Shown here in pieces: positions 15,787 through 55,585 of a DNA stretch of 61,151 bases. Source of the stretch: Nostocaceae cyanobacterium (GTDB taxonomy: Bacteria > Cyanobacteriota > Cyanobacteriia > Cyanobacteriales > Nostocaceae); the NCBI GenBank assembly GCA_035299225.1, contig DATGXB010000028.1, positions 1-61,151 of the forward strand, read 5' to 3'. Each line of letters begins with the position of its first letter. Within the stretch, counting starts at the first letter, position 1. Under the pieces are notes generated by a model, which saw nothing but the letters and a program-made list of their open reading frames with translations, was not told the DNA's origin and made no database searches. The translations under genes were made by a program, and so were the position numbers.

Positions 15787-15808
15787 ACACTATCCATATT
15801 AACCTGAT

Positions 15809-17510: not shown

Positions 17511-17511
17511 G

Positions 17512-18936: not shown

Positions 18937-18970
18937 GGTGTTAATTGATAGTAGAGTGAAGTTTAGTCAA

Positions 18971-19125
18971 TAGGAAATAGGGAACAGGGAACAGGCAATA
19001 GGCAATAGGCAATAGGCAATAGGCAATAGGCAATAGGCAATAGGCAATTAGGAATTTCTTATTTTCCCCCTTGCCCCTCTGCCCCCCTGCCCCTCTGCCC
19101 TTCTGCCTCCTGTCCCCTGCCTCCT
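18971..19125. repeat. bipartite STR spacer: (GGGAACA)2(AGGCAAT)9 ... C-rich (CCCCTCTGCC)n
   Basis: Read directly. The C-rich array abuts the stop codon of the devC-like gene. Confidence 0.9.
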
Positions 19126-26350: not shown

Positions 26351-26401
26351 CCCATTTTCAGATTAATACAAATAGCCAAGGGTAAAAGGGAAACTTAATT
26401 G

Positions 26402-38835: not shown

Positions 38836-39999
38836 TTAAACCGGTTGCCCAGCATCAAGAATACTTTGTAAAATTTCAGCAACTTCAAATACAGCTTGAT
38901 TTTGAATTGCAGTCACATTAGTTTTATAGCGTGACCAATTTTCAGGTTTTAAAAGTTCTGTAATAGCTGGAACAATTTGCTTAAAGCTTTTAACTGTGAT
39001 ACCGACTTGTTTTTCTAAAATCCAGTCAGCATTATATTTTTCATTCATCAGTGTTGCATAATTACGATCTACAATCACAGGTAAATTCATCACTAATGCT
39101 TCACTAATACTAATAGAACCAGGTTTACCAATAAAAAAATCAGCTAAATTCATCAAATACGCTACATCTTCAGTAAAACCTTGAATATGTTGTTTTAACT
39201 GAGTGGGACGCTCTTTTAATGCTTTTGCTAATTTTTGATTATTACCACAGAGAAAAATTACCTGTATTTTGTCGCTGATAGATTCTAAAGAACGGGCTAT
39301 ATCTAAAATGGTCGCACAACCTTTAGCCCCAAATGATACTATGGCAGTAATTTTATCTGGATCTAATCCTAAACGCTGTCTTTCTGTATGACGGTTGTCA
39401 GAAATTGGCCGATAAAATTGGGGATGAACAATCAAACCTGAAGTTTTTATAATATACTCTTCCCATACACCTAAATTACGGGCTTGATTTCTGGCTTTTT
39501 CTGTCCCACAAATAACATAACTTTTAGTTTCCGGTTCAATCCAAAAATGCGGCGGACAATCTGCAAAATCAGTTAAAATTGTCACCATTGGCGTGTCGGG
39601 TTGAACACGTTGTAAACTTTCCCAAATCGCTCGATTATGTAGAGGAATTAAAGAAATTACTAAATCAATTGGTGTATGCTGTCTCCAGTGTTTTTCTCCT
39701 AATTCCACTGCTTTTGAGTACAACAAATTAATAAAAAACTTATCCAGAAACATAGTCACAGGATGAAACCATGTCCAATCCATACTTAGCATATCGTTAT
39801 ATACATCATTGGCATCTACCCCAAATAATTTTTTGTAGGGGTCTAGCAATTTTGTCAGTTCACCAATATCTGTAACTGTAATTTGCCAAGGTCGGTTTTG
39901 TTGTTGGGCAATTGCTTTTAAAGCTCTTAAAGTAGCATAATGTCCCCCACCTGCATTGAGAGTAAAAATATGTAATGAATAGATTTTTTCCGCATTCAT
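38836..39999 (-). CDS. GT-B fold glycosyltransferase (MGDG-synthase/UgtP-like, GT28 family)
   Basis: N-terminal LNAGGGHYATLRAL resembles the UgtP/YpfP ANYGNGH motif. C-terminal GKPGSISISEALVMNLPVIV. Confidence 0.55.
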   Translation of the reverse strand: MNAEKIYSLHIFTLNAGGGHYATLRALKAIAQQQNRPWQITVTDIGELTKLLDPYKKLFGVDANDVYNDMLSMDWTWFHPVTMFLDKFFINLLYSKAVELGEKHWRQHTPIDLVISLIPLHNRAIWESLQRVQPDTPMVTILTDFADCPPHFWIEPETKSYVICGTEKARNQARNLGVWEEYIIKTSGLIVHPQFYRPISDNRHTERQRLGLDPDKITAIVSFGAKGCATILDIARSLESISDKIQVIFLCGNNQKLAKALKERPTQLKQHIQGFTEDVAYLMNLADFFIGKPGSISISEALVMNLPVIVDRNYATLMNEKYNADWILEKQVGITVKSFKQIVPAITELLKPENWSRYKTNVTAIQNQAVFEVAEILQSILDAGQPV

Positions 40000-40151: not shown

Positions 40152-41849
40152 CTACAGCGCAGTAATTTGGCTTTCCATTGCTGGAACTGCTGCTACTTGT
40201 AAATGAGGTTTAAAATGGTGTTCACGATTAAAAACACTATGAGGTAAAACTCTCAAAACCTCTTCGATGGTCGTTACTCCAGTTGTCACCTTTTGCGCTG
40301 CTGCTACACCAAAAGAAGTAAAATTTATCTCCTTTAAATAACGATTTAACTGAGTCATTGTTCCTTCATAAATTAACTCTCGCACTCTATCATCTACATC
40401 TAATAATTCTACAATTGCTTCCCGTCCTAAATACCCAGAATTAAAACACTTAGGACAGCCTCGACCCCGTTTCCAACTCTTGGTTGTAGTTGGTGTTGCT
40501 TCTAATCCTAGTCTACGTAAATCTGTGGCTGTAGGTGTATAGGGTTCTGCACAGTGGGGACAAACTCGACGGACTAAACGCTGTGCCACTATGCCCAAAA
40601 GTGCATCACTAATTAAACCAGGGTCGGGGCCAATATCTTTTAACCTGGGAATTGTACCTACAGCATCATTTGTATGTAAAGTAGTAAATACTAAGTGTCC
40701 AGTTAAAGCTGCTCTAACTGCTGTTTCTGCTGTTTCTGCATCCCGAACTTCTCCCAACATAATTACATCCGGGTCTTGACGGAGAATCGCCCGTAAACCC
40801 GCAGCAAAGGTCATTCCGGCGGCTTCGTTAACTTGGGTTTGGGTAATTCCTGCTAAGACGTATTCTACTGGATCTTCTACTGTGACGACGTTAACGGATT
40901 CTTTTGCTACATATTGTAAACTGGTGTAGAGAGTGCTAGTTTTTCCTGAACCTGTGGGACCAGTGAGAATAATCATGCCCTGTGGTTCACTTAACCATCT
41001 TTTATAAGTCTCTAATGTAGAACCGGAAAAGCCAAGTTTATTCATATCGGTGAAGGGGTTACGCTGTGGTAGTAAGCGTATTACTACTTTTTCCCCACCT
41101 ACACAGGGGAGGGTGCTGACCCGCATATCTAAACCTACTTCTGCCAAATCACTGGTATTATATTTTTCACCAATGCGACCATCTTGGGGACGGCGACTTT
41201 CAGCAATATCAATTTCTGACATGACTTTGAGGGCTACTACCACTTTCCGGCTGATTTCTAGAGGCAGGGTAGTAATGTGACGTAATACACCATCAATCCG
41301 GTAGCGGACTCTTAACCCATCGGGCATGGGTTCTAGGTGGATATCACTAGCACGGTTGCGTAAAGCTCCACTGATAATGGTTTTAACTCTTTCTATTTGG
41401 TCTGAGGCTTTGGAAAGATAGAGTTCGGTGATTTCTGTGATGTTTTCTGATTCTGATTCTTTGGTGAGGGGGTTAACTAGGGAGTCGGCGCTAATTTTAC
41501 TCAGGTCTAGATTTTGGGTGATGTACCAAGCTTTGTAACTTCTTTCTGTGATGGGGATGATTTTGATTTCTGTGGAAGTGCGATCGCCTAATTTTTTAAT
41601 TTCTTCTGGTGTTAATACCACTGGACTCCCCAAATAGTAACAATTACGCCACAACAACAAGGGAATCACTGGCGGTAATTCCTGGGGATTGGGGAATAAT
41701 TTAAAAAACCGAACGCTAACTTCCGAGTCTAAAAATTCCAGATTGATTTTTCCTGTCTCATCTATTAACAGTGTCAATGCTTGTTGACAATCAATTATAC
41801 CCTTTTTTAACTCCTGCCAAGGATTTAAGGGACTATCAAATAGTTGCAT
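40152..41849 (-). CDS. type II secretion / type IV pilus assembly ATPase (GspE/PilB family)
   Basis: Walker A GPTGSGKTST, Asp and His boxes, and a tetracysteine motif CPHC...CPKC. 565 aa. Confidence 0.85.
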   Translation of the reverse strand: MQLFDSPLNPWQELKKGIIDCQQALTLLIDETGKINLEFLDSEVSVRFFKLFPNPQELPPVIPLLLWRNCYYLGSPVVLTPEEIKKLGDRTSTEIKIIPITERSYKAWYITQNLDLSKISADSLVNPLTKESESENITEITELYLSKASDQIERVKTIISGALRNRASDIHLEPMPDGLRVRYRIDGVLRHITTLPLEISRKVVVALKVMSEIDIAESRRPQDGRIGEKYNTSDLAEVGLDMRVSTLPCVGGEKVVIRLLPQRNPFTDMNKLGFSGSTLETYKRWLSEPQGMIILTGPTGSGKTSTLYTSLQYVAKESVNVVTVEDPVEYVLAGITQTQVNEAAGMTFAAGLRAILRQDPDVIMLGEVRDAETAETAVRAALTGHLVFTTLHTNDAVGTIPRLKDIGPDPGLISDALLGIVAQRLVRRVCPHCAEPYTPTATDLRRLGLEATPTTTKSWKRGRGCPKCFNSGYLGREAIVELLDVDDRVRELIYEGTMTQLNRYLKEINFTSFGVAAAQKVTTGVTTIEEVLRVLPHSVFNREHHFKPHLQVAAVPAMESQITAL

Positions 41850-41946: not shown

Positions 41947-42774
41947 TTAAAGATGATGATCAAATTCCCCATTTTTGTGCAATTTCCCCACAAGTCCATC
42001 AAAATACCATTGTAGTAGGGGAGCGAAGAGGCTGTGCAACCGCATTAATAAAGTCATTTCTAATCCCGGTGTAATTACGAAGGCTTGGCGGGTGATTTCT
42101 TGTAAAATTTTCGTTGCTACTTGTTCGGCTGTCATGGTTTGGGCTGATTGGGTAATTAGTTTGGTTTCTGGGGGTTTGGTTTGATTTTCGGCGGCTAATT
42201 GGGGTGTGTCGGTGTCTGGTGGGTAGACTATGGAAATGTGCAAATTTTTGGTTTTCAGTTCACCCCGCAATGATTCAGCTAAACCCCGGACAGCAAATTT
42301 ACTAGGGCTATAGGGTGTATAACCATACAAACCAATTAAGCCGGCTCCTGAAGAAATGACGACAATATGACCTTTTTTCTGTTGTATCATTGCGGGTAAG
42401 GCGGCTTTAATACAGTAAAGAGTACCAAAGTAATTTATGGCCATTGTTTCTTCAAAAACCGTTAGGGGGAGTTCTGTAAAATATCCAGGTTGGGCAGTAC
42501 CAGCCGAGGTGATTAATAAATCTGGTGTACCTAATTGAGTTATAGCAGAGGCGATCGCTCTTTCTGCTTCTTCCCATTGAGAAACATCGGCGGAAATGGC
42601 TAATATTCGTTGTTCTGAGTGGGTTTTTAAGCTTTCCAGTTCTTTTTGGGTAGAGTTAAGTTTGGTTTGGTTACGGGCAATAATAGAGACATTAGCACCT
42701 GTTTGGATCAGAAGAGAGGCGATCGCTTTACCAATACCACTAGAACCACCCGTAATAATTGCGTGTTTATACAT
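41947..42774 (-). CDS. 3-ketodihydrosphingosine reductase (KDSR)-like short-chain dehydrogenase
   Basis: The true start is probably the ATG at 42774, since the ORF-track N-terminal MPPASCLLPPAS is STR-derived. ITGGSSGIGKAIA...NVSIIARNQTKL matches KDSR TGGSSGIGKCIA...ITLVARNEDKL. SKFAVRGLAESLRGELK...VYPPDTDTP...ENQTKPPETKLI matches KDSR SKFAIRGLAEALQMEVK...AYPPDTDTP...ENRTKPLETRLI, as recalled from the human KDSR sequence. Confidence 0.75.
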   Translation of the reverse strand: MYKHAIITGGSSGIGKAIASLLIQTGANVSIIARNQTKLNSTQKELESLKTHSEQRILAISADVSQWEEAERAIASAITQLGTPDLLITSAGTAQPGYFTELPLTVFEETMAINYFGTLYCIKAALPAMIQQKKGHIVVISSGAGLIGLYGYTPYSPSKFAVRGLAESLRGELKTKNLHISIVYPPDTDTPQLAAENQTKPPETKLITQSAQTMTAEQVATKILQEITRQAFVITPGLEMTLLMRLHSLFAPLLQWYFDGLVGKLHKNGEFDHHL

Positions 42775-42776
42775 TA

Positions 42777-42862
42777 GGCAATAGGAGGCAGGAGGCAGGA
42801 GGCAGGAGGCAGGAGGCATAAATAATTACTTCCTCATCTCCTCTTTCCCCCTGTTCCCTGTT
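42777..42862. repeat. STR block (AGGAGGC)5 ... CCCCCTGTTCCCTGTT
   Basis: Read directly. Lies between the CHRD and KDSR-like genes and creates the spurious N-terminal extension. Confidence 0.85.
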
Positions 42863-42866
42863 GTAA

Positions 42867-43565
42867 TTAACTTTTAACTGGACTTATTTTACCGCGAATA
42901 TCTCCAAAATATGTTTGTCCTTTAGTATGTAAATTAAAGTACAATTCGCTTCTTCTAGCAAACTGTTCCATCCCAGAAACGGTTTTTACTTTTTTGGATT
43001 TATCTAATTTATCTGGTGCATTTGCTGCGTCTGATGCAATTAGACATCCTGACAGGAAAACACCTAAAGGATCATTGGGAGAATTAACAACTTTTTCTAT
43101 ATTTTCATTGGTAACTACTACTGAAAAATGATTATCAGCAAAATTCTGTTGAATGTCTCCAGACAATGCAAAATCAACTAGAATTGGACCTAATTCATCC
43201 GGTTTACCACAGTGAATATGAAACATATTGATATCTTTTATGTTTACACCTTCAATATGAACATCAACAAAAGCTTTACTTAAATCTTTGGTAAATTTTA
43301 CTGTTCCATGTCCCTTTGATTTGCGCTCACTTCTGAGTAAAGAAGGGGCTGTAGATTGAAATTTTGGTGGGATATATTTTGGTGTATCTTTCTCTTCACC
43401 TGGTTCTTGCTGAGGAGTCAAAAAAGCTTCGTAAACAGAACCAATTTCTTCACCTTTCGGTATTTTACTTTGTGCAAAAGCCTTTTTTGGTTGTAGGGGT
43501 AATACAGTTAAGCAGACAAAAGCCAGCAAACAAATCAAGACAGTGAATATATATTTACTACGCAT
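42867..43565 (-). CDS. secreted CHRD-domain protein
   Basis: N-terminal signal peptide (MRSKYIFTVLICLLAFVCLTVLP). CHRD-like motif FHIHCGKPDELGPILVDF. Confidence 0.45.
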   Translation of the reverse strand: MRSKYIFTVLICLLAFVCLTVLPLQPKKAFAQSKIPKGEEIGSVYEAFLTPQQEPGEEKDTPKYIPPKFQSTAPSLLRSERKSKGHGTVKFTKDLSKAFVDVHIEGVNIKDINMFHIHCGKPDELGPILVDFALSGDIQQNFADNHFSVVVTNENIEKVVNSPNDPLGVFLSGCLIASDAANAPDKLDKSKKVKTVSGMEQFARRSELYFNLHTKGQTYFGDIRGKISPVKS

Positions 43566-43733
43566 AACATTCTACTTTTCAAAAATTTAACAAGGATGTA
43601 AAACTTTCATTAGCTTTAGTCAGCAATATTATCACGATTGCTAAAATTACTACTGTATATTTACTAATCTTTAAATATTTCCTAATTTCTACCTCCAGCA
43701 AGAATCATTATTCAGTCATACCCTTTTTTACAG

Positions 43734-46700
43734 TTAAGAAATGTAGCATTTTTTCAAAGCCGTTATAGTTTGATTAATTTGTGTTTCTGTGTGCAAACAA
43801 CTAATAAAAAAGCGCAGACGTGCAGCATCATTAGGGACAGCAGGATAAATCATTGGTTGAACGTTGATTCCAGCTTGGAAGAGTGCGTGAGATAAGCGAA
43901 TACAGTTTAGAGAATCTCCCAAAACAATGGGAATAATCGGAGAATTTTGGCTTGTGGATGTGTTCCAACCTTGTGCTTGAGCTAGTTGCAAAAATTGATG
44001 CGATCGCTCTTGCAAAATTTTCACTCGTTCTGGTTCTGATTTCAGTAACCGCAGAGATGCTAAAGCCGCAGCAGTATTAGCAGGGGATAATCCTACACTA
44101 TAAACAAACCCGGGAGCAGTATATTTTAAATAATTTACCAAAGCCTTAGAACCAGCAATATATCCCCCACAACTAGCAAAAGCTTTGCTTAATGTCCCCA
44201 TCCACAAATCTACTTGATTTCGTTCTATATTAGAAAATTCACCAATACCCCGGCCATTTTCACCTAATACCCCAATAGAATGGGCTTCATCTACCATTAA
44301 AAAGGTTTTATGTCGTTTTTTCATTTCAATAAATCGGGGTAAATCTGGGATATCTCCATCCATACTATAAATACCTTCAATTACTATTAAAACTCGCCGA
44401 TAATTTTGGCGTTGGTTTTGTAGCATTTTATCTAAAAATTGCCAATCATTATGGGGAAAAGGTACGGATTTAGCACCAGATAAAGCACAACCTTGTAAAA
44501 TACTATTGTGACTGAAGGCATCGTAAAAAATTAAATCTTGGGAATTGAACAAATGACCGATAGTAGTAACATTGGTAGCGTGACCACTAACATATACAAT
44601 GCAATCTTCTACACCAATAAATTCTGCTAATTCTTGTTCTAATTCTTGATGTAGTAAACGTTCACCTGATGCCAAACGACTGGCACAAACTGATGTGCCA
44701 TAGCTATCAATTGCTGCCTTTGCTGCTGCGGAAACTGTCGGATTTCCTGATAAGCCTAAATAGTTGTAACTGGAATAGTTAATTAGTGTTTGTCCTTGAA
44801 TTTGTGTACAATCTCTAGTTATGGATTCCTGGATTTGAAAATAAGGATTAGGAATTTCTAAAGTTTGAATTTGGGTTAATTTTGCTTGGAGTTGGGCATA
44901 TTCTGGAAAAGATTCAATTTGATAATATTCAGAAGGAATTTGTGCTAAAGGCTGATTATGATCTTGAGAAAGTTCTTTAACTAGATATTGTGTTAAATTA
45001 GCAATTGTTTCAAATGATTGCAGTGTAGAAATATTAAGTAAATATCCAGAATAGCTTTGTAAGTCTTGAATGAATTGTGTTGCTGTCAAAGAATCTAAAC
45101 CATAAGCTGCAAAAGATTCATTTTGGTTAATAGATTGAATAGAAATATTTAATTTTTTTGCCAACCATTGACAAATCCAATCTTGGATTGATTCTAAAGC
45201 ATAATCTTGATGATGTTTTGGAGAAATATCTATTACTTCTGAAGCTATTAAAGGTAAATTTCCTGCTAAGAAAGTCTCACGACAGAGAAACCGTTGTATT
45301 TTACCACTAGAAGTTTTAGGAAGAGTTCCTGGTTTAAGTAATAAAACTTGATATACTTGTAAATCATGTTCCATTAAAACGGCTTTTCTAATAGCTTTTA
45401 CTACTTCCTCCACTTGGATATTTCGCAAATAATTCCGCTTGACTTCACAAGCTACAAAAAGACGATTTTCTCCATCTATTTCCACCACAAAAGCGGCAAT
45501 ACTATGAAAACTTAATGCTGGATGGCAAGTTTCTACGGTTTGTTCAATATCTTGAGGATAATAATTTCTTCCCCGGATAATTAATATATCTTTAATCCGT
45601 CCAGTGACAAATAAACCTGCCTCATCATCCCAAAACCCTAAATCCCCAGTTCGCAAAAATGCTCCTTCTTTTGTATCTGCTAAATAAGCATAAAATGTTT
45701 GTTTTGTTAATTCTGCTTGTTGCCAATATCCTTGGGTGACACTTTCACCTTTAACCCAAATTTCCCCGATTTCTCCTGATGAACATTTGGTTAAGGAATC
45801 AGGATTTACAATAATCACAGTTTGACCAAGGACAGGATAGCCACAACTAACAATTTTACGGGTATTTTGAGTTTCTGTAGGGGAATTAATTACTTGATTT
45901 TTTTCTAAAGCTTTAGCGTCAAATATTTTAATTATAGGTGATTTTTCTTTAATTGCACCTGTTATTAATAAAGTTGTTTCAGCCATGCCATAGGAAGGAC
46001 GGAAAGCACTGGGATTAAATCCATAGGGGGCAAATGTATCAATAAAATCTGTAATAGTTTCTGCTCGTATAGGTTCAGCCCCATTAATGGCAATTTGCCA
46101 ACTGCTAAGGTTAAAATTAGTTAATTGTTCTGGATTAATCTTTTTAAATCTTTCTACACACAGATCATAAGCAAAATTAGGGCTGACTGTGACTGTAACT
46201 TGATAATTAGAAATTACTTTTAACCACAATATTGGGTTTTGTAAAAATGCCATTGGTGACATTAATATCACCGGAAATCCTACTAACAGGGGTTGAAGTG
46301 TTCCCCCAACTAAGCCCATATCATGGTAAAGTGGTAGCCAATTTAAAACTATCCCCTCAGCACTTTCTTGATAGCTATGTTGGATAACTTGACAGTTATG
46401 AACTAAATTCTTGTGAGAAACTATTACCCCTTTAGGAGTGCCTGTAGAACCAGAAGTATATTGTAAAAATGCGGTGGTATTAGGTTCTATTTTTATATGG
46501 GTAAAATCTTCAGCTTTAGTATTTATCTGGTCGGTTAAAACCCATTGTAAATGTGTAAATATCTCTTCCTTTTGGGCAATGAGTTGAAAAATATTTGTGT
46601 TAGTTAATAATAAGTTAGCTTGGGCATCATGAACAATGGTTTGTAATCGGGATAACTTCTGGTTGCGTTTGGGTGGATAAGCTGGGACAGCAATGATTCC

Positions 46701-46979
46701 TGCATATAAACAGGCAAAAAAACTGATAACAAAATCTAATCCTGATGGATAAAGTAGTAACGCTCTATTACCTGGTGTAGAGATGGTTTGCAAATGGGCA
46801 GCAACATATTTTATTTTATCTTCTAGCTCTTGATAAGTTAAACAATCGGTTTGTATTTCTCCATCTTCGAGAAATATATAGGCTTTTTGGTGTGGTTGGT
46901 GTTTTGCCCTGTAGTGTAATAAATCTACAAGGGTTTTGTCCTGGAGAGGAAAATCAGCTTTAATTTGGGAGGTTATCAT
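43734..46979 (-). CDS. tridomain FAAL - acyl carrier protein - alpha-oxoamine synthase (serine-palmitoyltransferase/AONS-like, PLP-dependent)
   Basis: Residues 1-570 are a FAAL (YTSGSTGTPKGVIVSHKN). Residues ~585-665 are an ACP (AAYGLDSLTATQF, phosphopantetheine Ser). Residues ~700-1081 are an AONS/SPT-type aminotransferase class II (NYSSYNYLGLS, GHATNVTTIGHL, PLP-Lys motif GTLSKAFASCGG). Confidence 0.85.
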   Translation of the reverse strand: MITSQIKADFPLQDKTLVDLLHYRAKHQPHQKAYIFLEDGEIQTDCLTYQELEDKIKYVAAHLQTISTPGNRALLLYPSGLDFVISFFACLYAGIIAVPAYPPKRNQKLSRLQTIVHDAQANLLLTNTNIFQLIAQKEEIFTHLQWVLTDQINTKAEDFTHIKIEPNTTAFLQYTSGSTGTPKGVIVSHKNLVHNCQVIQHSYQESAEGIVLNWLPLYHDMGLVGGTLQPLLVGFPVILMSPMAFLQNPILWLKVISNYQVTVTVSPNFAYDLCVERFKKINPEQLTNFNLSSWQIAINGAEPIRAETITDFIDTFAPYGFNPSAFRPSYGMAETTLLITGAIKEKSPIIKIFDAKALEKNQVINSPTETQNTRKIVSCGYPVLGQTVIIVNPDSLTKCSSGEIGEIWVKGESVTQGYWQQAELTKQTFYAYLADTKEGAFLRTGDLGFWDDEAGLFVTGRIKDILIIRGRNYYPQDIEQTVETCHPALSFHSIAAFVVEIDGENRLFVACEVKRNYLRNIQVEEVVKAIRKAVLMEHDLQVYQVLLLKPGTLPKTSSGKIQRFLCRETFLAGNLPLIASEVIDISPKHHQDYALESIQDWICQWLAKKLNISIQSINQNESFAAYGLDSLTATQFIQDLQSYSGYLLNISTLQSFETIANLTQYLVKELSQDHNQPLAQIPSEYYQIESFPEYAQLQAKLTQIQTLEIPNPYFQIQESITRDCTQIQGQTLINYSSYNYLGLSGNPTVSAAAKAAIDSYGTSVCASRLASGERLLHQELEQELAEFIGVEDCIVYVSGHATNVTTIGHLFNSQDLIFYDAFSHNSILQGCALSGAKSVPFPHNDWQFLDKMLQNQRQNYRRVLIVIEGIYSMDGDIPDLPRFIEMKKRHKTFLMVDEAHSIGVLGENGRGIGEFSNIERNQVDLWMGTLSKAFASCGGYIAGSKALVNYLKYTAPGFVYSVGLSPANTAAALASLRLLKSEPERVKILQERSHQFLQLAQAQGWNTSTSQNSPIIPIVLGDSLNCIRLSHALFQAGINVQPMIYPAVPNDAARLRFFISCLHTETQINQTITALKKCYIS

Positions 46980-47200
46980 TATGACAGCTTCTTGAATAAT
47001 TGATATTACAAAACTTCATTCAATTTTTAGTTAAATATAGGCTATAGTTTACTGCTATAAACATTTTTTCGCCCGAATAGTGGTGAAATTCCTTAACTAA
47101 CAGGCTACCTCTGGTTACAATAGCATCCAAGTTCAAGCGGTTGATAATAAAATTTTTTGCCCCCTGCTGCCCTGCACTACCCTCCATTAATACTGCAAAT

Positions 47201-50200
47201 ATGCAACACTTAAAAACCTTGAAAAATAGAGAACCCATTGCGATAGTCGGTATTGGTTGCCGCTTTCCAGGTGGTGCGAATAACTCAGAAGCATTTTGGA
47301 ACTTGTTGATTAATGGTGTAGATGCGATCGCCGAAGTACCTGCAAGCCGTTGGAATATTAGTAACTTTTATCACCCTGACACCGCCAAGCCAGGGAAAAT
47401 CCGCACTCGTTGGGGTGGGTTTATTGAAGATATAGATCAATTTGACGCGCAATTTTTCGGCATTTCCCCCAGAGAAGCGGCTTGTATTGATCCCCAGCAA
47501 AGGTTATTGCTAGAGGTCGTTTGGGAAGCTTTGGAAGATGGGGGACAGGTAGCAGCAAAACTGGCTAATTCTCAAACTGGTGTATTTATCGGCATATCGG
47601 GTAGTGATTATCACCATATTCAACTCAATGTAAGCGATCGCCATTTAATCAATGCTTACACACATTTAGGGGGTGTCCACTGCATCGCTGCCAACCGGAT
47701 TTCCTATGTTTTAAATCTCCAGGGACCCAGTTTAGCAGTTGATACCGCTTGTTCTTCCTCCCTGGTAGCGGTTCATTTAGCTTGTCAAAGCATCTGGAAT
47801 GGGGAATCAAGCGCCGCTATTGCTGGGGGTGTGAATGCCATGCTCAAACCAGAAACCAGCATTGGATTTTCTAAAGCCTCCATGCTTTCACCAGATGGAC
47901 GTTGTTTTACTTTTGACGCACGCGCTAACGGATATGTCCGGGGTGAGGGTGTGGGTGTGGTATTTTTAAAGCCTTTATCTCAAGCTCAAGCTGACAAAGA
48001 TCCGATTTATGCGGTAATAAAAGCTACCGCTGTTAACCAAGATGGCCAAACCAACGGCATTACAGTTCCTAACGGCAAAGCCCAAGAAGCGGCTATTTTA
48101 TCAGCTTGTGAACAAGCGGGAATTTTACCAGAACAGGTGCAATACGTAGAAGCCCACGGCACAGGAACACCAGTAGGTGATCCCATTGAAACTAAAGCTT
48201 TAGGTCATGTTTTGGGGAAAAATCGGCCAGCAGGAGAACATTGTTTAATCGGTTCGGTAAAAACGAATATTGGGCATTTAGAGCCAGCTTCGGGCATTGC
48301 GGGTTTGATTAAAGTGGCTTTGGCGATTAAAAATGGTCAAATTCCGCCAAACTTAAATTTACAAACACCAAACCCTGAAATTCCTTTTACTGAGTTGCGG
48401 TTGCGTGTACCAACAAACCCAGAACCCTGGCCGGATGAAGAGAAGCCACGTATAGCCGGCATCAATTCTTTTGGTTTTGGGGGAACTAATGCTCATACGA
48501 TTTTAGCAGAAGTTCCTCAGCCTCCAGCCCCACTTCGACTTCGCTCTGTTACCACCGCTAAAAAATCCTATTTATTACCTTTATCAGCCCGCAGTGAAGC
48601 CGCACTGAAAGATTTAGCAGCAGCTTATAAAATATTTTTGACAAATACAAGTTTATCATTATCGGATATTTGTTATACTGCCACTTTCTACCGAGATCAT
48701 CATGACCACCGTTTAGCAGTGGTGGGAAGTTCTCCCGCAGAAATAACCGCTAACTTAGCAGGGTTTTTGGCTGAAGAAACCCGCTTGAGAATTTCTGAGG
48801 GGCGGGTTATTGTTGATAAGTTGCCTAAGTTGGCTTTTGTTTTCTCTGGAATGGGTCAACAATGGTGGGCAATGGGACGGAGTTTATTAGCAGAGGAATC
48901 AGTATTTCGAGAAAAAATACAACAGTGTGACCAATTATTGAGACAATATACCGACTGGTCACTGTGGGAGGAGTTAACAGCAAGTGAGGAAAGTTCGCGC
49001 ATTAATGAAACTCAAATCGCTCAATGTGCGATTTTTTCCGTACAAGTTGCCTTGGCCGCTTTATGGGAAAGTTGGGGTATTGTCCCAGCCGGCATAGTTG
49101 GCCATAGTGTGGGAGAAGTGGCAGCTGCTTATGTTGCGGGGGTGTTAAGTTTAGAAGATGCTGTATGTGTAATTTTCCACCGTAGCCGCTTACAAGCTAC
49201 CAGTGCCGGACAAGGAAAAATGTTAGCAGTGGGGTTATCTCTGGAAGAAGCTGAAAAGGTCATATCTGGGTATGAAGATAAAGTCGCTGTGGGTGCGGTT
49301 AACAGTCATAATTCTGTCACCCTCTCAGGAGATAGTCAGGCTTTAGGAGAAATTGCCCAAACTTTAGAACAGCAAGAGGTTTTTTGTCGTTTCCTCAAGG
49401 TAGAAGTTCCCTATCACAGCCCCTTAATGGAACATCTCAAGGCAGATTTATTACATTCTTTATCAGAAATTACACCAAAATCAGCCGCTATTCCTCTCTT
49501 TTCTACAGTCACAGGTCAGCAAGTTGCAGGAACGGAAATAGATGGAGCATACTGGGGGCAAAATATGCGAAATCCAGTATTATTTGCTGCCGCAGTAGAA
49601 GGAATGATGGAAGCTGAGTATAATTTGTTCTTAGAAATTGGTGCTCATCCAGTTTTAGCTAACTATATTTCTGAGTGTTTTACTCAAGCAAATCAAGCAG
49701 TAACGGTTTTACCTTCCCTGCGTCGGCAAGAATCTGATTTAGTAATAATGCTGGGGAGTTTTGGTAAACTTTATACTGTAGGATATGCAGTTGATTGGAA
49801 TCGGCTGGATTTAGATGGTCAGTTTGTGCGTGTTCCGTCCTATCCTTGGCAAAAAGAGCAATATTGGCATGAGTCAGAAGAATCACAACAGGCTAGAATA
49901 GGGGAAGGTTTGAGGCGATCGCTCTTAGGCAAACAAGTACATCCTTTATTGGGAAGTCGTCTAGAATCTGTACAATTGTTGTGGAATGCCACAATAGACC
50001 AAAGCAACCTCACCTATTTAAAAGACCATCGCATCCAGGGATCAGTAGTTTATCCCGGTGCAGGTTACATTGAAATGGTCTTGGCTACCGCTAAGGAGCT
50101 TTTTGGTGCAGGAAGTTGTATTTTAGAAGATGTAGAATTTTTGCAAGCTTTATTTTTACCCGATGAACCAATTACATTACAGTTAAGCGTAGAAGACCAA

Positions 50201-53200
50201 AATCAAAACAGTTTCAATATTCATAGTTTGGTTAAAGGTGAAAAACCTGCTTGGGTACGTCATGCTACAGGTAATTTACTCAAATTGCAAAATCATTTAC
50301 CTGAACCCATCATATTAAATGAGATTCGCGCTAATTGTCATCAAGAAATATCTCAACATCTTCTTTATCAACAATTCCAAGAAATCGGTTTAGAATATGG
50401 GGCAAATTTCCAAGGAATTGCAAAACTTTGGACTGGTGAAAAAGAAGCACTTGCTCAAATCAAATTACCCGAAAATCTCACAGCAGAATTACCAAATTAT
50501 CAGTTACATCCAACCTTATTAGATGCTTGTTTTCAAGTGCTAATTGGTACTGTTTCCACTAAACAAACTTATCTACCGATAAAAATTGAAAAATTCCGTT
50601 TTTACCAATCTCCTGGTTTACAAGTCTGGACTTATGCGCGGTTAGTGACAGAAAACACCAAGCAAATTACAGGAGATATACAAATAATAGATGCTAATGG
50701 TAATATATTAGTAGAAATTCAAGGTTTCTGCTGTCGTTCCCTTCCCCAAGCACAGGAATTTGTTACAAAACCAGAAAATTTACTTTATCAATATCAATGG
50801 GAATTAAAATCACGTCCTGACCAAAAATTAATTATCAATGCTGCTTATCTTCCTTCTCCTCACCAAATTACTGAAAATCTCCACAGTGAAGCTATGAGAT
50901 TAAGTCAGCAATTAGGACGTAAAATTTATTATGAACAAGTAAATTCCCAAGTAAATAATTTATCCGTTAGTTATATTATTCATGCCTTTCAACAATTAGG
51001 CTGGAAACCAGAATTACATCAACAAATTAACACAGATACCTTAATAGAACAGTTGGGTATTGCATCTCAGCATCGGCGTTTATTTGGTCGGTTGTTGGCA
51101 ATTTTAGAAAAAGAAAATATCTTAACATTAATATCTGATCAAAACTGGAAAATCAACCAAATTCCTGAAGTCAAAGAAATAAAACAACTTTGGCAAAATC
51201 TATTTACTCAATTTCCCGCATATCAAGCCGAACTGACTTTACAGCGACGTTGCGGTGAGAAATTAGCCCAAGTTTTACGCGGAGAAATTGACCCCTTACA
51301 ACTAATTTTTCCAGAAGGTTCGCTCACCGCATCAGAACAACTTTACCAAGATTCTCCTAATTATAAAATTTACAATATTTTAGTACAAAAAGCCGTTGCC
51401 TTAGCATTAGAACATTTACCAGCCGGTCGCAAAATCAGAATCTTAGAAATTGGTGCGGGTACTGGTGCGCTAACTTATTATATTTTGCCAAAATTACCAG
51501 CTAAACGCACAGAATATATATTTACAGATGTAACTCAAGTTTTTGTCAATTCTGCTCAACAAAAATTTAGCAATTATCCTTTTATTAATTATTCCGTTTT
51601 AGATATTGAAGCTGATCCAATTTCTCAAGGTTTTGATGCACATTCTTTTGATTTGATTGTAGCATCTGATGTACTGCACGCAACTACTAATTTACCTTCT
51701 ACCTTAGAAAATATTAAACAACTTTTAGCTTCCCAAGGATTATTAATATTTATAGAATTAACAAATGCACCCTATTGGGCAGATTTAGTATTTGGAATGC
51801 TTCAAGGTTGGTGGCTATTTGCAGATGAGAGAAAAATTAATCCTTTACTTTCAGCTTTACAATGGCAAGATTTACTGATAAAATGCGGATTTACAGAAGT
51901 TGATAGCCTTGCAGATAGCGACGGAACTTTTGCATCTGTGCATCAGGTATTTTTGGCTCAAACTCCCCAAATTAAAATACAAGGTAGAGACGTTCCATGG
52001 AACGTCTCTACAACCGAAAATATTCAAAACGTTTCTACAGCAGAAAATATTCAAAACATCTCTATATCTGAGAATATTAATTTACCAACTCAAAAAACGG
52101 GAACTTGGTTAATTTTTGGTGATAAATTTGGAGTTGGACAAAAGTTAGCTGAAAAATTGAAAGAAAATTCACAAACTCCCATTTTCATTTTACCCGGAAA
52201 TGAGTTTCAACAAATCGCTGATGATTGTTTCCAAATTCGTCCAGCACATCTAGAAGATATCCAAAGAATAGTACACACTAATATTACTGGTATTATTCAT
52301 CTTTGGAGTTTGGATATTCCAGCAGTTGCAGAAACAACTTTAACTGAACTAGAACAAGCTCAAAAATTAGGTTGTTTAACTATACTTTACCTAGTCCAAA
52401 CTTTAGAAAAAATCGGCATTTCCCCCCGCTTAGTATTAGTAACAGCCGACACTCAAGCTATAGGAGAAACTCCAGCTTTAGAAGTTGGTCAATCTCAATT
52501 ATGGGGTTTAGGACGGGTAATTGATAATGAGTTTCCTAATTTGCGTTGTTTAAGAATTGATATCAGTTCTAAAAAAGATATTCGAGAAATTAATGCGCTA
52601 TTTGCTGAACTGTGGTCAGAAGATAGAGAAGATGAAATTGTTTTCCGGGGTGAAGCGCGTTATGTCCATCGCTTAGTATCAGTAGTAGCAGGAGAAATTA
52701 ATTCAAAATCTGCAATTAAAAATCAACCATTTCGTTTAGAGATCACCCAACCAGGAATTTTAGACAACCTCACCTTAAAACCATTAGCAAGAAAGCAACC
52801 AGAAGCGGGAGAAGTGGAAATAGAGGTTTACGCTACAGGGTTAAACTTTAAAGATGTAGCAAAAGCAATGAACTTGCTGGCTGATGTGAACTTAGAAGGA
52901 AATTTTTCCGGGCGATCGCTTGGTTTGGAATGTGCTGGTAAAATTACAGCTATTGGTGCAGGTGTGACAAATTTTCAAATTGGTGATGAAGTTATAGCCA
53001 GCGCTCCTCACAGCTTCAGTTCCCACACTATCACAGATGCCCGTCTAGTTGTCCACAAACCCCAAAATATCAGTTTTGAAGAAGCTGCAACCATTCCGGC
53101 GGTTTTCCTCACTGCTTATTATGCCCTGCATTATTTGGGTAGAATAACTAAAGGGGAGAAAGTTCTGATTCATGCCGCAGCAGGTGGAGTTGGTCTAGCA

Positions 53201-55585
53201 GCTATCCAACTAGCGCAAAAAGCAGGTGCGGAAATATTTGCTACCGCAGGCAGTGCAGAAAAACGGGAATTACTCCAAGCTTTAGGTGTTAAATATGTCA
53301 TGGATTCCCGTAGTTTAGATTTTGCTGACCAGATCATGCAATACACCAATAATAAAGGTGTAGATATCGTCCTTAACTCTTTAGCTGGTGCAGCTATTCC
53401 CAAAAGTCTTTCTGTCTTAGCACCCTATGGACGGTTTATAGAAATTGGTAAACGGGATATTGATGATAATAATAAATTAGGTTTACGACCTTTTCAGAAA
53501 AACCTCTCATTTTTCGCGGTAGACTTAGACCGACTGTGGAAAGAACGCGCAGAGTTAGCCGGTTCTTTATTTGCTGAAGTAATGCAACTTTTCCGAGAAC
53601 AGACTTTACACCCCCTACCTCACCGAGTTTTCCCCATCTCTCAGGTAAAATCAGCTTTCCGTTACATGGCTCAAGCTAAACACATCGGTAAAGTTGTAAT
53701 TTCCTTGCAAAACCCTGATGTAATTATTCCCCCACCACAGGAAAAAATTACATTTCATCAACATGGTACTTATTTAATTACTGGCGGTTTAGGTGGATTT
53801 AGTTTAGCATTAGCTCAATGGTTAGTAGAACATGGTGCGGGAAATTTAGTGTTGATGGGCAGAAGTGGTCAAGTTTCCCCCGATGCTGAGTTAATTATTA
53901 ACAGTTTAAAAGCCGCCGGTACTAATGTTGTGGTAGCTAAAGCCGATGTTAGTCAAGCCGACCAAGTGGCACGGGTGCTTAAAGATATCAAAGAATCTCT
54001 ACCACCATTACGGGGAATATTCCATGCAGCTTTAGTATTAGATGATGCCATCTTACTGCAACTCAATCAAGAACGATTCCAAAAAGTAATTGCTCCCAAG
54101 GTTGATGGTGCTTGGAATTTACACACCCAAACTTTAGATATACCCTTAGATTGCTTTGTGCTATTTTCTTCTGTAGCCGCAACCATTGGTAATCCTGGTC
54201 AGGGTAATTATGTAGCTGCAAGTGTTTTTCTTGATACATTAGCACATTATCGCCGCAACTTAGGGTTAAAAGCCTTAAGCATTAACTGGGGAGTTATCGC
54301 TGATGTGGGTTATGCTGCTCAAAAGTCCCACATAGGAGAACATTTCCAACGTTTGGGACTAAAACCGCTACAGTCAAAACAAGCTTTACAGGTTTTAGAA
54401 AAATTGCTACAAGCGGACGCAGTACAAACCGCAGTAGCACCGGTAGATTGGTTACAATGGCATCAAGCTTATCCGGCTGGTATATCTCCCCGTTTTTCTT
54501 ACCTCACCAGCCAAGAAAGCTTAACTCAAGAAGCAAGTAACCCTAATATTGATACTGATTCTTTCCGTAATCTCCTATTAGCTGCAACAGACCGCGAACA
54601 GTTATTATCATCCCGTTTGCTGGAACAAGTTGCGAGGGTTTTGGGAACTTCTGTGGCTAAATTAGATACTTCCAAATCATTAACGAATTTGGGGTTAGAT
54701 TCCCTCATGGCCGTAGAACTGAGTAACCGCATCAAAAATGAACTAGAAGCCAAAATACCAGCCATGAAAATCATGCAGGGGTTGAATATTTCCCAACTGA
54801 CAAGCGAAATCATGGAACAGTTAACTGGAGCTGCTAAACAAAACGTTTCCGTGAAAACAGGTGACTGGTTAGTGTTCCCCCGACCAAATTCTGAAGCGCG
54901 TTTGCGGTTGTTTTGCTTCCCTTATATTAACGGTAGTAGTTCGGTATTTAGTCAATGGCCAGAGAAATTACCCCCAGATATTGAAGTTTGTGCTGTACAA
55001 TTACCAGGAGGAAGCGATCGCCTCAATGAACCACCCATCCAAACCTTAACTTCCCTCATAGAAACACTTGCAAATGCTCTCATCCCTAATTTAAACAAAC
55101 CCTTTGCCTTTTATGGTCACAGTTTAGGCGCATTAATCAGCTTTGAACTAGCTCGATATCTGCGTCAAAAAACCGGTAAAATCCCTGTTCATCTGTTTGT
55201 TGCTGCTTTACAAGCTCCCCAACTACCCCACCCTTACCCCTCTATATCTCACCTCTCCGACTCCCAAGCCTTAAAAAAAGCCTCTCTGTTGGACTTACCC
55301 GAAGCATTTGGACAAAATCCTGAGTTAATGCAGTTATTATTACCAGGTCTAAAAGCCGGAATTGCCATTTCTCAAAATTATACTTATGCACCAGATAAAC
55401 CCTTAGAATGTCCCATTACCGCTTTTGGTGGAAATCAAGATAAAGTCATCACTCAAGAGCATTTATTAGCTTGGGAAAAACAAACTTCTAGTACATTCAA
55501 TTTACAAATCTTCCCTGGTAATCATTTATTTCTACACACTGACCAAAACCTACTACTACCTTATTTAGCCACTTACTTGAATTAG
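47201..55585 (+). CDS. single-module, fully reducing type I polyketide synthase, domain order KS-AT-DH-cMT-ER-KR-ACP-TE
   Basis: The ORF opens at 47141 (MIIK), but the in-frame ATG at 47201 (MQHLKT) is the probable start. KS Cys motif DTACSSSL near 47750. AT GHSVGE near 49100. DH HxxxGxxxxP (HPLLGSRLE...YPGAGY) near 49945. SAM motif LEIGAGTGAL near 51445. ER VLIHAAAGGVGLAAIQLA near 53170. KR ITGGLGGFSLALAQW near 53770. ACP LGLDSLMAVEL near 54700. TE GHSLGALIS near 55120. Confidence 0.9.
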   Translation: MQHLKTLKNREPIAIVGIGCRFPGGANNSEAFWNLLINGVDAIAEVPASRWNISNFYHPDTAKPGKIRTRWGGFIEDIDQFDAQFFGISPREAACIDPQQRLLLEVVWEALEDGGQVAAKLANSQTGVFIGISGSDYHHIQLNVSDRHLINAYTHLGGVHCIAANRISYVLNLQGPSLAVDTACSSSLVAVHLACQSIWNGESSAAIAGGVNAMLKPETSIGFSKASMLSPDGRCFTFDARANGYVRGEGVGVVFLKPLSQAQADKDPIYAVIKATAVNQDGQTNGITVPNGKAQEAAILSACEQAGILPEQVQYVEAHGTGTPVGDPIETKALGHVLGKNRPAGEHCLIGSVKTNIGHLEPASGIAGLIKVALAIKNGQIPPNLNLQTPNPEIPFTELRLRVPTNPEPWPDEEKPRIAGINSFGFGGTNAHTILAEVPQPPAPLRLRSVTTAKKSYLLPLSARSEAALKDLAAAYKIFLTNTSLSLSDICYTATFYRDHHDHRLAVVGSSPAEITANLAGFLAEETRLRISEGRVIVDKLPKLAFVFSGMGQQWWAMGRSLLAEESVFREKIQQCDQLLRQYTDWSLWEELTASEESSRINETQIAQCAIFSVQVALAALWESWGIVPAGIVGHSVGEVAAAYVAGVLSLEDAVCVIFHRSRLQATSAGQGKMLAVGLSLEEAEKVISGYEDKVAVGAVNSHNSVTLSGDSQALGEIAQTLEQQEVFCRFLKVEVPYHSPLMEHLKADLLHSLSEITPKSAAIPLFSTVTGQQVAGTEIDGAYWGQNMRNPVLFAAAVEGMMEAEYNLFLEIGAHPVLANYISECFTQANQAVTVLPSLRRQESDLVIMLGSFGKLYTVGYAVDWNRLDLDGQFVRVPSYPWQKEQYWHESEESQQARIGEGLRRSLLGKQVHPLLGSRLESVQLLWNATIDQSNLTYLKDHRIQGSVVYPGAGYIEMVLATAKELFGAGSCILEDVEFLQALFLPDEPITLQLSVEDQNQNSFNIHSLVKGEKPAWVRHATGNLLKLQNHLPEPIILNEIRANCHQEISQHLLYQQFQEIGLEYGANFQGIAKLWTGEKEALAQIKLPENLTAELPNYQLHPTLLDACFQVLIGTVSTKQTYLPIKIEKFRFYQSPGLQVWTYARLVTENTKQITGDIQIIDANGNILVEIQGFCCRSLPQAQEFVTKPENLLYQYQWELKSRPDQKLIINAAYLPSPHQITENLHSEAMRLSQQLGRKIYYEQVNSQVNNLSVSYIIHAFQQLGWKPELHQQINTDTLIEQLGIASQHRRLFGRLLAILEKENILTLISDQNWKINQIPEVKEIKQLWQNLFTQFPAYQAELTLQRRCGEKLAQVLRGEIDPLQLIFPEGSLTASEQLYQDSPNYKIYNILVQKAVALALEHLPAGRKIRILEIGAGTGALTYYILPKLPAKRTEYIFTDVTQVFVNSAQQKFSNYPFINYSVLDIEADPISQGFDAHSFDLIVASDVLHATTNLPSTLENIKQLLASQGLLIFIELTNAPYWADLVFGMLQGWWLFADERKINPLLSALQWQDLLIKCGFTEVDSLADSDGTFASVHQVFLAQTPQIKIQGRDVPWNVSTTENIQNVSTAENIQNISISENINLPTQKTGTWLIFGDKFGVGQKLAEKLKENSQTPIFILPGNEFQQIADDCFQIRPAHLEDIQRIVHTNITGIIHLWSLDIPAVAETTLTELEQAQKLGCLTILYLVQTLEKIGISPRLVLVTADTQAIGETPALEVGQSQLWGLGRVIDNEFPNLRCLRIDISSKKDIREINALFAELWSEDREDEIVFRGEARYVHRLVSVVAGEINSKSAIKNQPFRLEITQPGILDNLTLKPLARKQPEAGEVEIEVYATGLNFKDVAKAMNLLADVNLEGNFSGRSLGLECAGKITAIGAGVTNFQIGDEVIASAPHSFSSHTITDARLVVHKPQNISFEEAATIPAVFLTAYYALHYLGRITKGEKVLIHAAAGGVGLAAIQLAQKAGAEIFATAGSAEKRELLQALGVKYVMDSRSLDFADQIMQYTNNKGVDIVLNSLAGAAIPKSLSVLAPYGRFIEIGKRDIDDNNKLGLRPFQKNLSFFAVDLDRLWKERAELAGSLFAEVMQLFREQTLHPLPHRVFPISQVKSAFRYMAQAKHIGKVVISLQNPDVIIPPPQEKITFHQHGTYLITGGLGGFSLALAQWLVEHGAGNLVLMGRSGQVSPDAELIINSLKAAGTNVVVAKADVSQADQVARVLKDIKESLPPLRGIFHAALVLDDAILLQLNQERFQKVIAPKVDGAWNLHTQTLDIPLDCFVLFSSVAATIGNPGQGNYVAASVFLDTLAHYRRNLGLKALSINWGVIADVGYAAQKSHIGEHFQRLGLKPLQSKQALQVLEKLLQADAVQTAVAPVDWLQWHQAYPAGISPRFSYLTSQESLTQEASNPNIDTDSFRNLLLAATDREQLLSSRLLEQVARVLGTSVAKLDTSKSLTNLGLDSLMAVELSNRIKNELEAKIPAMKIMQGLNISQLTSEIMEQLTGAAKQNVSVKTGDWLVFPRPNSEARLRLFCFPYINGSSSVFSQWPEKLPPDIEVCAVQLPGGSDRLNEPPIQTLTSLIETLANALIPNLNKPFAFYGHSLGALISFELARYLRQKTGKIPVHLFVAALQAPQLPHPYPSISHLSDSQALKKASLLDLPEAFGQNPELMQLLLPGLKAGIAISQNYTYAPDKPLECPITAFGGNQDKVITQEHLLAWEKQTSSTFNLQIFPGNHLFLHTDQNLLLPYLATYLN
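51984..52082 (+). repeat. 28-bp perfect palindrome (GTAGAGACGTTCCATGGAACGTCTCTAC) followed by three imperfect 27-bp tandem repeats, in-frame within the PKS cMT-ER linker
   Basis: Palindrome checked base by base (14+14, centred on CCATGG). The repeats encode VSTTENIQN / VSTAENIQN / ISISENINL. A near-copy of the palindrome is at 10277-10298. Confidence 0.85.

Follow-up and report, generated by a model that had tools for sequence, protein, structure and literature searches.

The window analyzed here is the complete 61,151-bp contig of a third-party-annotation metagenome-assembled genome (MAG) labeled Nostocaceae cyanobacterium. It contains a gene cluster, conserved in many cyanobacteria, that probably builds and exports a glycosylated sphingoid-type lipid. 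The cluster centers on a 1081-aa protein that fuses fatty acyl-AMP ligase (FAAL), acyl carrier protein (ACP), and pyridoxal phosphate (PLP)-dependent α-oxoamine synthase (AOS) domains, and on a short-chain dehydrogenase (SDR) resembling 3-ketodihydrosphingosine reductase (KDSR). The conserved partners of this pair are two GT28-like glycosyltransferases (GT_A and GT_B), a second FAAL (FAAL2), a fatty-acid (FA) hydroxylase, a flippase, and the exporter DevBCA, all located in the window between 16.1 and 47 kb. A preliminary description of this DNA had listed open reading frames (ORFs) and domains that were recovered in full by Pfam and NCBIfam scans and by reading the sequence, and all genes were intact. 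The part of the cluster at 16110-27676 (second FAAL, second glycosyltransferase, FA hydroxylase, flippase, and DevBCA) lay outside the coordinates of that description and had been missed.

The fusion gene occupies 43734..46979 on the minus strand. By Pfam and NCBIfam domains, the protein consists of an AMP-binding domain (residues 23-419), a FAAL-type C-terminal domain (464-579), a PP-binding domain fused directly downstream of the FAAL (600-666), and an Aminotran_1_2 domain (732-1075). The corresponding subregions of the gene are the FAAL (approximately 45243-46937), the ACP (approximately 44982-45182, with the Ser of GLDSL), and the AOS (approximately 43743-44903, with the Lys of GTLSK). The top single-domain NCBIfam models for the adenylation domain were all FAAL families, yet they remained below cut-off (PRK05850, 452 vs. 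775). The homologue search with the fusion returned at least 8000 matches across phyla. Full-length FAAL-ACP-AOS proteins were found in cyanobacteria, Pirellulales, Deltaproteobacteria, Acidobacteria, and Chloroflexota, and their usual database label was 8-amino-7-oxononanoate synthase or class I/II aminotransferase. "A-CP-PLP2" (A-CP-AOS) proteins had been catalogued by Milano 2013 (PMC3870968), including B1XHP8 of Synechococcus PCC 7002, which was modeled on the Sphingobacterium (S. multivorum) serine palmitoyltransferase (SPT) at 42% identity with serine docked. The initial expectation that the fused architecture would be new was therefore mistaken. Literature searches found no publication assigning a function to these fusions, and two FAAL surveys (PMC11837247 and PMC12820801) do not mention AOS, PLP, or sphingolipids. 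Some homologues carry further domains (among P0018-P0024, P0032, and P0047): acyl-CoA dehydrogenase domains in Nostoc variants of approximately 1700 aa, and a luciferase-like monooxygenase domain in Chloroflexota variants of approximately 1550 aa.

The AOS domain has the residues expected of an α-oxoamine synthase, as an active-site comparison suggested by the preliminary description revealed. The Schiff-base Lys, the PLP-stacking His, the Asp-x-x-His motif, and the carboxylate-binding Arg (H116, D189, H192, S223-K224, and R348 in the domain alignment) align to SPT and KBL residues, and the catalytic His, Asp-x-x-His, Ser-Lys, and Arg were invariant in 14 homologues from several phyla. When the AOS family profile was searched against known structures, the highest scores were those of S. 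multivorum SPT (316 bits), SPTLC2 (300), LCB2a (293), and KBL (292), followed by 5-aminolevulinate synthase (ALAS, 243), 8-amino-7-oxononanoate synthase (AONS, 241), cysteate acyltransferase (221), and CqsA (121). The last of these scores, the lowest, ruled out a CqsA-like identity. A crude neighbor-joining tree with five references placed the fusion clade beside LCB2/SPTLC2, with identities to the references of only 30-37%. Clustering with BioF or ALAS, which had been named in advance as the outcome that would count against an SPT-type enzyme, was not seen. The residue preceding the Schiff-base Lys (GTLSK) is an invariant Ser in the AOS family; at this position, three SPT structures have S or T, and the E. 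coli enzymes KBL and AONS and two ALAS have G or A. In the docking of Milano 2013 (PMC3870968), that Ser was bonded to the hydroxyl of the substrate serine in the PCC 7002 homologue. We read the AOS domain as a distinct AOS clade leaning toward SPT, and L-serine is, speculatively, its most likely amino-acid substrate.

The SDR gene (41947..42774, minus strand, 275 aa) encodes the predicted 3-keto reductase of the AOS product. Its longest ORF reaches 42819; the family consensus and the NCBI call begin at the Met chosen in the preliminary description. The best PDB match of the single sequence was the Cryptococcus KDSR TSC10 (8jat, 110.7 bits), and with a 24-member family profile TSC10 scored 154 bits, compared with 131 and 119 bits for the next matches and at most 108 bits for FabGs. 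The profile thus favored KDSR over every FabG by at least 45 bits, and a FabG identity, the grouping that would have spoken against a KDSR homologue, was ruled out. The alignment to TSC10, the nearest characterized relative, extends through the C-terminal ENxTKPxxTK block: the PPDTDTP...ENQTKPPETKLI block of the SDR aligns to AENRTKPAVTKKI of the Cryptococcus protein, so that the KDSR-type block first claimed for this SDR is indeed there. The block presumably matches human KDSR as well. The classical SDR motifs were invariant in the 24 family members, namely TGxxxGxG (T8-G15), the N114-S141-Y155-K159 tetrad, and R34 after β-2 (NADPH), as was the PPDTDTPQ..EN.TKP.E block. With identities of 60-86%, the family occurs widely among cyanobacteria; its label in the JGI pipelines is 3-dehydrosphinganine reductase. 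The SDR is therefore predicted to be KDSR-like and to reduce the 3-keto group of the AOS product.

Thirteen cyanobacterial loci were compared by tblastn and Pfam, and the SDR adjoined the AOS gene in 12 of them. The pairing spanned four different architectures. It occurred with the FAAL-ACP-AOS fusion (L001, L004, L007, L015, L018, L020, L021, L024, and L025), with an ACP-AOS protein and a separate FAAL (L022 and L023), and with a PKS-AOS fusion (L008; PKS, polyketide synthase). The hosts of fusion and SDR were Richelia sinica, an uncultured cyanobacterium, Chlorogloeopsis PCC 6912, Fischerella PCC 9605, Desmonostoc, Pantanalinema, Picosynechococcus PCC 7003, and two JGI contigs. Three planctomycete fusions had no such SDR nearby. 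Because the AOS-SDR pairing recurs across architectures, it is the strongest support for a condensation to a 2-amino-3-ketone that is then reduced to a 2-amino-3-ol; together with the SPT and KDSR profile searches, it sustains the original proposal that fusion and SDR form a long-chain 2-amino-3-ol unit.

Several of these loci have features of their own. In L022 (3140-10846), from Moorea, a genus with a reported cerebroside, the KDSR-like SDR is grouped with an FAAL, an ACP-AOS protein, and a B12-binding radical-SAM enzyme. L023 (1-10828, Nostoc sp. C117) contains two flavin halogenase-like genes, an FAAL, a fatty-acid desaturase, an ACP, a thioesterase (TE), an ACP-AOS gene, and the KDSR-like SDR, a gene run that suggests halogenated or unsaturated amino-alcohol lipids. 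An Elainellales MAG (L008, 4784-12323) encodes one 2233-aa protein of the order KS-DH-ER-KR-ACP-AOS, without a detected AT domain, that is preceded by a P450 and followed by the KDSR-like SDR; this arrangement appears to be the cyanobacterial equivalent of sphingoid synthesis from a PKS. In Chlorogloeopsis fritschii PCC 6912 (L007, 4445-7884), the fusion orthologue is divided between two ORFs in different frames, with the break near residue 523, and this is either a frameshift/pseudogene or an assembly error in a complete genome.

The wider cluster showed the same gene order and orientation in the window as in relatives: DevBCA, flippase, FA hydroxylase, FAAL2, GT_B, GT_A, SDR, and fusion. In Fischerella PCC 9605, fusion, SDR, and a 385-aa glycosyltransferase are accompanied on the opposite strand by a divergent glycosyltransferase (429 aa) and an FAAL (600 aa), followed by genes for an FA_hydroxylase protein (171 aa), a flippase of the Polysacc_synt family, and an ABC ATPase with an FtsX permease. 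Pantanalinema has the same gene set, with DevCAB-type genes immediately upstream of the fusion, and Picosynechococcus PCC 7003 has fusion, SDR, FAAL, GT4, flippase, and FA_hydroxylase. In L016 (Nostoc sp. DSM 114161, 13457-16528), the SDR site is taken by a 107-aa ORF and an RTX-repeat protein, and GT_A, GT_B, FAAL2, and the hydroxylase are kept.

GT_A (38836..39999, minus strand, 387 aa) is a GT28/MGDG-synthase-like lipid glycosyltransferase by Pfam (Glyco_tran_28_C and MGDG_synth). Both domain scores were weak (24-25 bits), and the NCBIfam model for diglucosyl-diacylglycerol synthase (UgtP-type) gave 101 vs. a cut-off of 500. Orthologues (68-81% identical) follow the SDR in L001, L004, L007, L015, L018, and L020 and are nearby in L016; L024 and L025 have a gene that matches GT_A by size, position, and Pfam matches. 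The hint that this gene belongs to the system found support, as it adjoins the pair in nine of the nine close cyanobacterial loci that extend past the SDR. GT_B (26399..27676, plus strand, 425 aa) is a second, divergent GT28-like glycosyltransferase (weak Glyco_tran_28_C; UgtP-type, 61 bits), with 68-83% identical orthologues beside FAAL2 in L001, L007, L015, L016, L018, and L020 and a match by size and position in L024 and L025. Both proteins resemble GT28 lipid glycosyltransferases at the family level. FAAL2 (24545..26350, plus strand, 601 aa) is a stand-alone FAAL with Pfam AMP-binding and DIP2-like C-terminal domains, and its top NCBIfam models were FAAL families. It lies next to GT_B in L001, L007, L015, L016, and L020, and L024 and L025 contain genes that match it; in L021, an FAAL 45% identical to FAAL2 comes after the SDR.

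The FA hydroxylase (23954..24469, minus strand) is a small membrane protein of 171 aa (Pfam FA_hydroxylase, 52.9 bits; weak OlsE match) with HxxxH and HxxHH boxes and orthologues in L015, L016, and L021; a PDB search with it gave no meaningful match. The flippase (20326..21675, plus strand) belongs to the Polysacc_synt (Wzx/MOP-type) family by Pfam and has orthologues in L001, L007, L015, L020, L021, and L024. The tripartite ABC exporter (16110..20291, minus strand) exceeded the curated NCBIfam cut-off with all three genes: DevB (16110-17285; 321.4 vs. 129), DevA (17512-18936; 332.9 vs. 295.8), and DevC (19125-20291; 372.7 vs. 290.35). In L020, the Dev genes adjoin the fusion; in L001 and L015, they border the cluster. 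The DevA ATPase carries two C-terminal cyclic-nucleotide-binding domains, an architecture shared with L001 and L020, and these domains suggest cyclic nucleotide (cNMP)-gated export. A heterocyst-specific role of the cluster is unlikely, since it is present in the unicellular PCC 7003 and in Pantanalinema.

An enzyme for N-acylation was sought in the window. The domain scan covered 44 ORFs, which were all those of at least 100 aa except two overlapping annotated genes on the opposite strand. None had a TLC/LAG1 or GNAT-type ceramide synthase domain, in agreement with the first inspection, so that the N-acyltransferase or ceramide synthase of the canonical bacterial ceramide pathway (Spt, bCerS, and CerR) was absent from the window ORFs scanned. 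That pathway reportedly continues with bCerS and CerR and not with a KDSR-type SDR. No bCerS or CerR gene of the Caulobacter type was seen in the window.

Several observations weigh against a sphingoid-type product. The AOS passed none of the curated SPT models of NCBIfam (NF047600, 315 vs. a cut-off of 640; NF047599, 295 vs. 500; NF047603, 228 vs. 670), and its best NCBIfam score was that of bioF (TIGR00858, 359), itself below the cut-off of 426; the KBL model gave 310 (cut-off 460). In the single-sequence PDB search, KBL (224.6 bits) ranked above SPTLC2 (215.6 bits) and bacterial SPT (212.5 bits), and AONS and ALAS were lower than these. The 30-37% identity holds for every reference, which makes serine use a tentative assignment. 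L016, without an SDR beside the fusion, is the sole exception among the 13 loci. The conserved cluster includes neither an N-acyltransferase nor a ceramide synthase, which makes a ceramide-like product a conjecture; an LRAT-domain gene was seen in L020 and in no other locus. The window cluster is interrupted by approximately 13 kb of unrelated genes. Finally, Nostoc punctiforme, which is without this fusion, had no sphingolipids (PMC8895605), and the trait is therefore patchy.

The same scores bear on two other explanations. According to one, the AOS uses alanine, glycine, or another non-serine amino acid and forms a 1-deoxy-type amino alcohol, a specialized metabolite rather than a sphingolipid analogue. 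The glycine-using KBL as best single-sequence PDB match, bioF as best NCBIfam score, the separate clade of the AOS domain at 30-37% identity to all references, and sister loci with halogenases, a radical-SAM enzyme, or a P450, like natural-product clusters, are consistent with this idea. However, the family profile puts three SPTs above KBL, the Ser before the catalytic Lys is of the SPT type where Gly/Ala users have G or A, and the two lipid glycosyltransferases, the flippase, and the Dev exporter accord with a C1 hydroxyl that bears a polar head group. We regard a non-serine substrate as rather unlikely. The other explanation is that the AOS is a housekeeping BioF or ALAS, the SDR is of the FabG type, and their neighborhood is coincidental. 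The source annotations do name the fusion 8-amino-7-oxononanoate synthase, and TIGR00858 is the top-scoring NCBIfam AOS model, but that score falls short of its cut-off, the structures of SPT and KBL clearly outrank those of AONS and ALAS, and the fused FAAL-ACP gives a long-chain acyl donor and not pimeloyl; for these reasons, a BioF or ALAS identity was ruled out. In addition, cyanobacteria have a separate clade of stand-alone BioF (PMC8895605), the SDR profile prefers KDSR to every FabG, and the AOS-SDR pairing is conserved. The probability of a housekeeping origin is negligible in our estimation.

For the sphingoid-type lipid that we favor, the following route is proposed. By analogy with AasR/AcpR/Spt and SPT/KDSR biochemistry, the FAAL of the fusion would adenylate a free long-chain fatty acid and load it onto its own ACP. 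The PLP-dependent AOS would then condense the acyl-ACP with an amino acid, speculatively L-serine as the likeliest, with loss of CO2, to give a 3-keto long-chain base, and the SDR with NADPH would reduce the 3-keto group to a sphinganine-like amino alcohol, as in SPT/KDSR chemistry. The later steps are more speculative. A hexose may be added by one or both GT28-like glycosyltransferases. FAAL2 may provide a second acyl chain, possibly onto the amine; since FAAL2 is constant and no N-acyltransferase is conserved, N-acylation by or through FAAL2 is our working guess. The small FA-hydroxylase-family protein may hydroxylate the lipid, and the Wzx-type flippase and the DevBCA pump may carry the product to the cell envelope. 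Judged by families and synteny, two GT28/MGDG-synthase-like glycosyltransferases together with the flippase and DevBCA suggest a glycosylated lipid that is brought to the envelope. A stronger version is that of a self-contained route to an envelope glycosphingolipid analogue, from Picosynechococcus to Nostocales, with FAAL-ACP-SPT and KDSR, GT28 glycosyltransferases, FAAL2 in place of a ceramide synthase, and DevBCA export; we put this version forward tentatively, as a possibility short of an even chance. If true, it would add to the bacterial sphingolipid pathways a third one, assembled independently, and would supply the genetic basis that is missing for the chemically reported cyanobacterial cerebroside and sphingomyelin-like lipids.

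Next to the fusion lies a single-module, fully reducing PKS with the Pfam order KS-AT-DH-cMT-ER-KR-ACP-TE (47201..55585, plus strand). Its ORF (47141-55585) opens at TTG 47141, the probable start is ATG 47201, and the protein has approximately 2.8 thousand residues. All eight domains were found, and every active-site motif was read intact: DTACSSS, EAHGTGT, and NIGHLE (Cys-His-His) in KS; GHSVGE in AT; HRIQGSVVYP (HxxxGxxxxP) and DxxxQ in DH; LEIGAGTG (ExGxGxG) in cMT; HAAAGGVG in ER; GGLGG with Tyr and LDD in KR; LGLDSL in ACP; and GHSLGA in TE. With the ATG at 47201, the divergent intergenic spacer between fusion and PKS measures 221 bp by sequence reading (46980..47200), close to the 220 bp given at first. 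In the model of the preliminary description, this PKS, possibly acting iteratively, makes a methyl-branched acid that its TE releases and that the FAAL re-activates as its dedicated substrate, so that fusion and SDR form a branched sphingoid base. The complete PKS with its terminal TE, the divergent transcription across 221 bp from the fusion, an arrangement retained in L017, and the existence of PKS-fed AOS and KDSR systems (SgaABC, PMC12134224; L008) agree with such a supply, and TE release followed by FAAL re-activation would be chemically reasonable, with adjacency as the evidence for it. The distribution of the PKS argues against it. The PKS adjoins the fusion in the window and in L017 only, a 15-kb contig whose fusion is 95% identical; L017 is thus of the same lineage and is not independent support for the link. 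The PKS was absent from 11 other cyanobacterial loci, including L001, L007, L015, L024, and L025 (fusion 78-84% identical), and these relatives have DevB, globin/DUF4440, SOD, and unrelated ORFs upstream of the fusion instead. A scan of JGI metagenomes with the DH-cMT region gave one 35% match and no close relative. Moreover, known PKS-fed AOS proteins receive an ACP that is fused or handed over directly, with no TE and no FAAL (L008; PMC12134224), whereas the AOS here comes with an FAAL-ACP of its own and the PKS terminates in a TE. A conserved acyl supplier of the SgaABC type was not found. The synteny table ruled out the PKS as a conserved cluster member, and its role as integral acyl supplier found no support. 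We consider the PKS-fed route unlikely. The PKS is a recent arrival, a lineage-specific add-on outside the conserved machinery, which does without it; in this lineage, it may supply one of the two FAALs with a methyl-branched acid.

The genes that split the window cluster are PIN and Uma2 genes, a block of approximately 9 kb, an NDH-2 gene, a GspE-type ATPase gene, and a CHRD gene. The block holds an ORF for 696 aa, two DJ-1 genes, EthD, CMD, and an amylase-family gene; the 696-aa ORF (28453-30543, plus strand) has no Pfam or NCBIfam family and is absent from all related loci. The NDH-2-type flavoprotein beside GT_A (37005..38372, minus strand; Pfam Pyr_redox_2 and NDH2_C) has an 89% identical orthologue between GT_A and GT_B in L024 (11789-13156), an 82%-identical relative, and is shared with L024 only; it is possibly an accessory gene of the cluster, though its membership is doubtful. 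The GspE/PilB-type secretion ATPase between SDR and GT_A (40152..41849, minus strand; Pfam T2SSE) is an orphan, as no other secretion genes lie next to it. Among the loci compared, only the window has it, and it is probably not part of the pathway. A secreted CHRD-domain protein with an N-terminal signal-like segment (42867..43565, minus strand; Pfam CHRD) is encoded between fusion and SDR. It occupies the same position in L017, L007, L024, and L025, which form with the window five loci of one subclade, and is absent from L001, L004, L015, L018, L020, and L021; it is a subclade-specific insert. A promoter and terminator scan of 38.5-47.4 kb found sites no more numerous than in shuffled sequence and thus says nothing on operon structure. 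Elsewhere in the window are unrelated signaling/defense-type genes for a Ser/Thr kinase with WD40 repeats (6279-8009), a 1418-aa SNF2-family helicase (10545-14801), and a NACHT NTPase (57997-60030).

Sphingolipids have long been considered restricted to a small number of bacterial phyla. Belton 2022 gives no sphingolipid enzyme or genetic basis in cyanobacteria, from which a cerebroside and acetylsphingomyelin were isolated (Moorea and Scytonema). Our literature searches found no paper on a cyanobacterial KDSR or SPT, and the initial statement that no such pathway had been described for cyanobacteria agrees with both. The cluster is a concrete and widely distributed candidate for this genetic basis. 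It is also present in the Picosynechococcus PCC 7002/7003 lineage, in which the model strain PCC 7002 is amenable to genetic manipulation (PMC11730487). If confirmed, the cluster would add an exported glycolipid class to the cyanobacterial envelope, provide an instance of SPT chemistry working as a single FAAL-ACP-AOS polypeptide, and allow a function to be assigned to thousands of proteins labeled "8-amino-7-oxononanoate synthase" or "aminotransferase class I/II."

Compared with known systems, the A-CP-AOS set of Milano 2013 (PMC3870968) has the same domain architecture as the window fusion, but that work was bioinformatic only and described no neighborhood, reductase, product, or function. 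In Caulobacter and other Rhodobacteria, an acyl-ACP synthetase works together with an ACP and Spt as one unit (PMC9386255). AasR-AcpR-Spt thus shares with the window the sequence of acid activation, dedicated ACP, and PLP-dependent condensation, but it consists of three separate proteins with an acyl-ACP synthetase as activator, whereas the window has one fusion with an FAAL. The DevBCA exporter of heterocyst glycolipids (TIGR02971, TIGR01185, and TIGR02982) is likewise represented by three genes in a glycolipid-type cluster that pass the curated cut-offs. In contrast to the heterocyst system, the window-type cluster also occurs in the unicellular/non-heterocystous L021 and L020, its DevA has two cNMP-binding domains, and the cargo would be an amino-alcohol glycolipid and not a polyketide fatty-alcohol glycoside.

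The AOS of fumonisin biosynthesis uses alanine as substrate. The fungal clusters for fumonisin (Fum1/Fum8/Fum13) and sphingofungin (SphB/SphA/SphF), cited in PMC12134224, resemble the window in grouping a KS-AT-DH-cMT-ER-KR-ACP PKS, an AOS, and a KDSR-like reductase. They are eukaryotic, their AOS takes the PKS product directly, and they are unlike the window in having no FAAL-ACP fusion. In Pseudomonas fluorescens MYb115, SgaB is a serine-specific SPT-type AOS, SgaC is a eukaryote-like KDSR homologue, and C24-C28 sphinganines are derived, by a non-canonical route, from an iterative PKS (Peters 2025, PMC12134224); in the portion of its supplements consulted, no cyanobacteria are listed. SgaA/SgaB/SgaC and the window both combine an AOS, of the SPT type in SgaB and leaning toward SPT in the window, and a KDSR-like reductase in one cluster with an adjacent fully reducing type I PKS. 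The stand-alone AOS of SgaABC is fed by its iterative PKS, whereas the window AOS is fused to FAAL and ACP and lies next to a PKS that ends in a TE and lacks conservation. For SgaB, the use of serine is proven; for the window AOS, sequence comparison tentatively suggests it. SPT/KDSR chemistry is already known, as are its bacterial variant linked to a PKS (2025) and the architecture A-CP-AOS (2013). Apparently undescribed are any genetic basis for cyanobacterial sphingolipids (Belton 2022) and a cyanobacterial cluster that joins the fusion and the KDSR-like reductase to what SgaABC does not include: two lipid glycosyltransferases, a second FAAL, a hydroxylase, a flippase, and Dev-type export by DevBCA.

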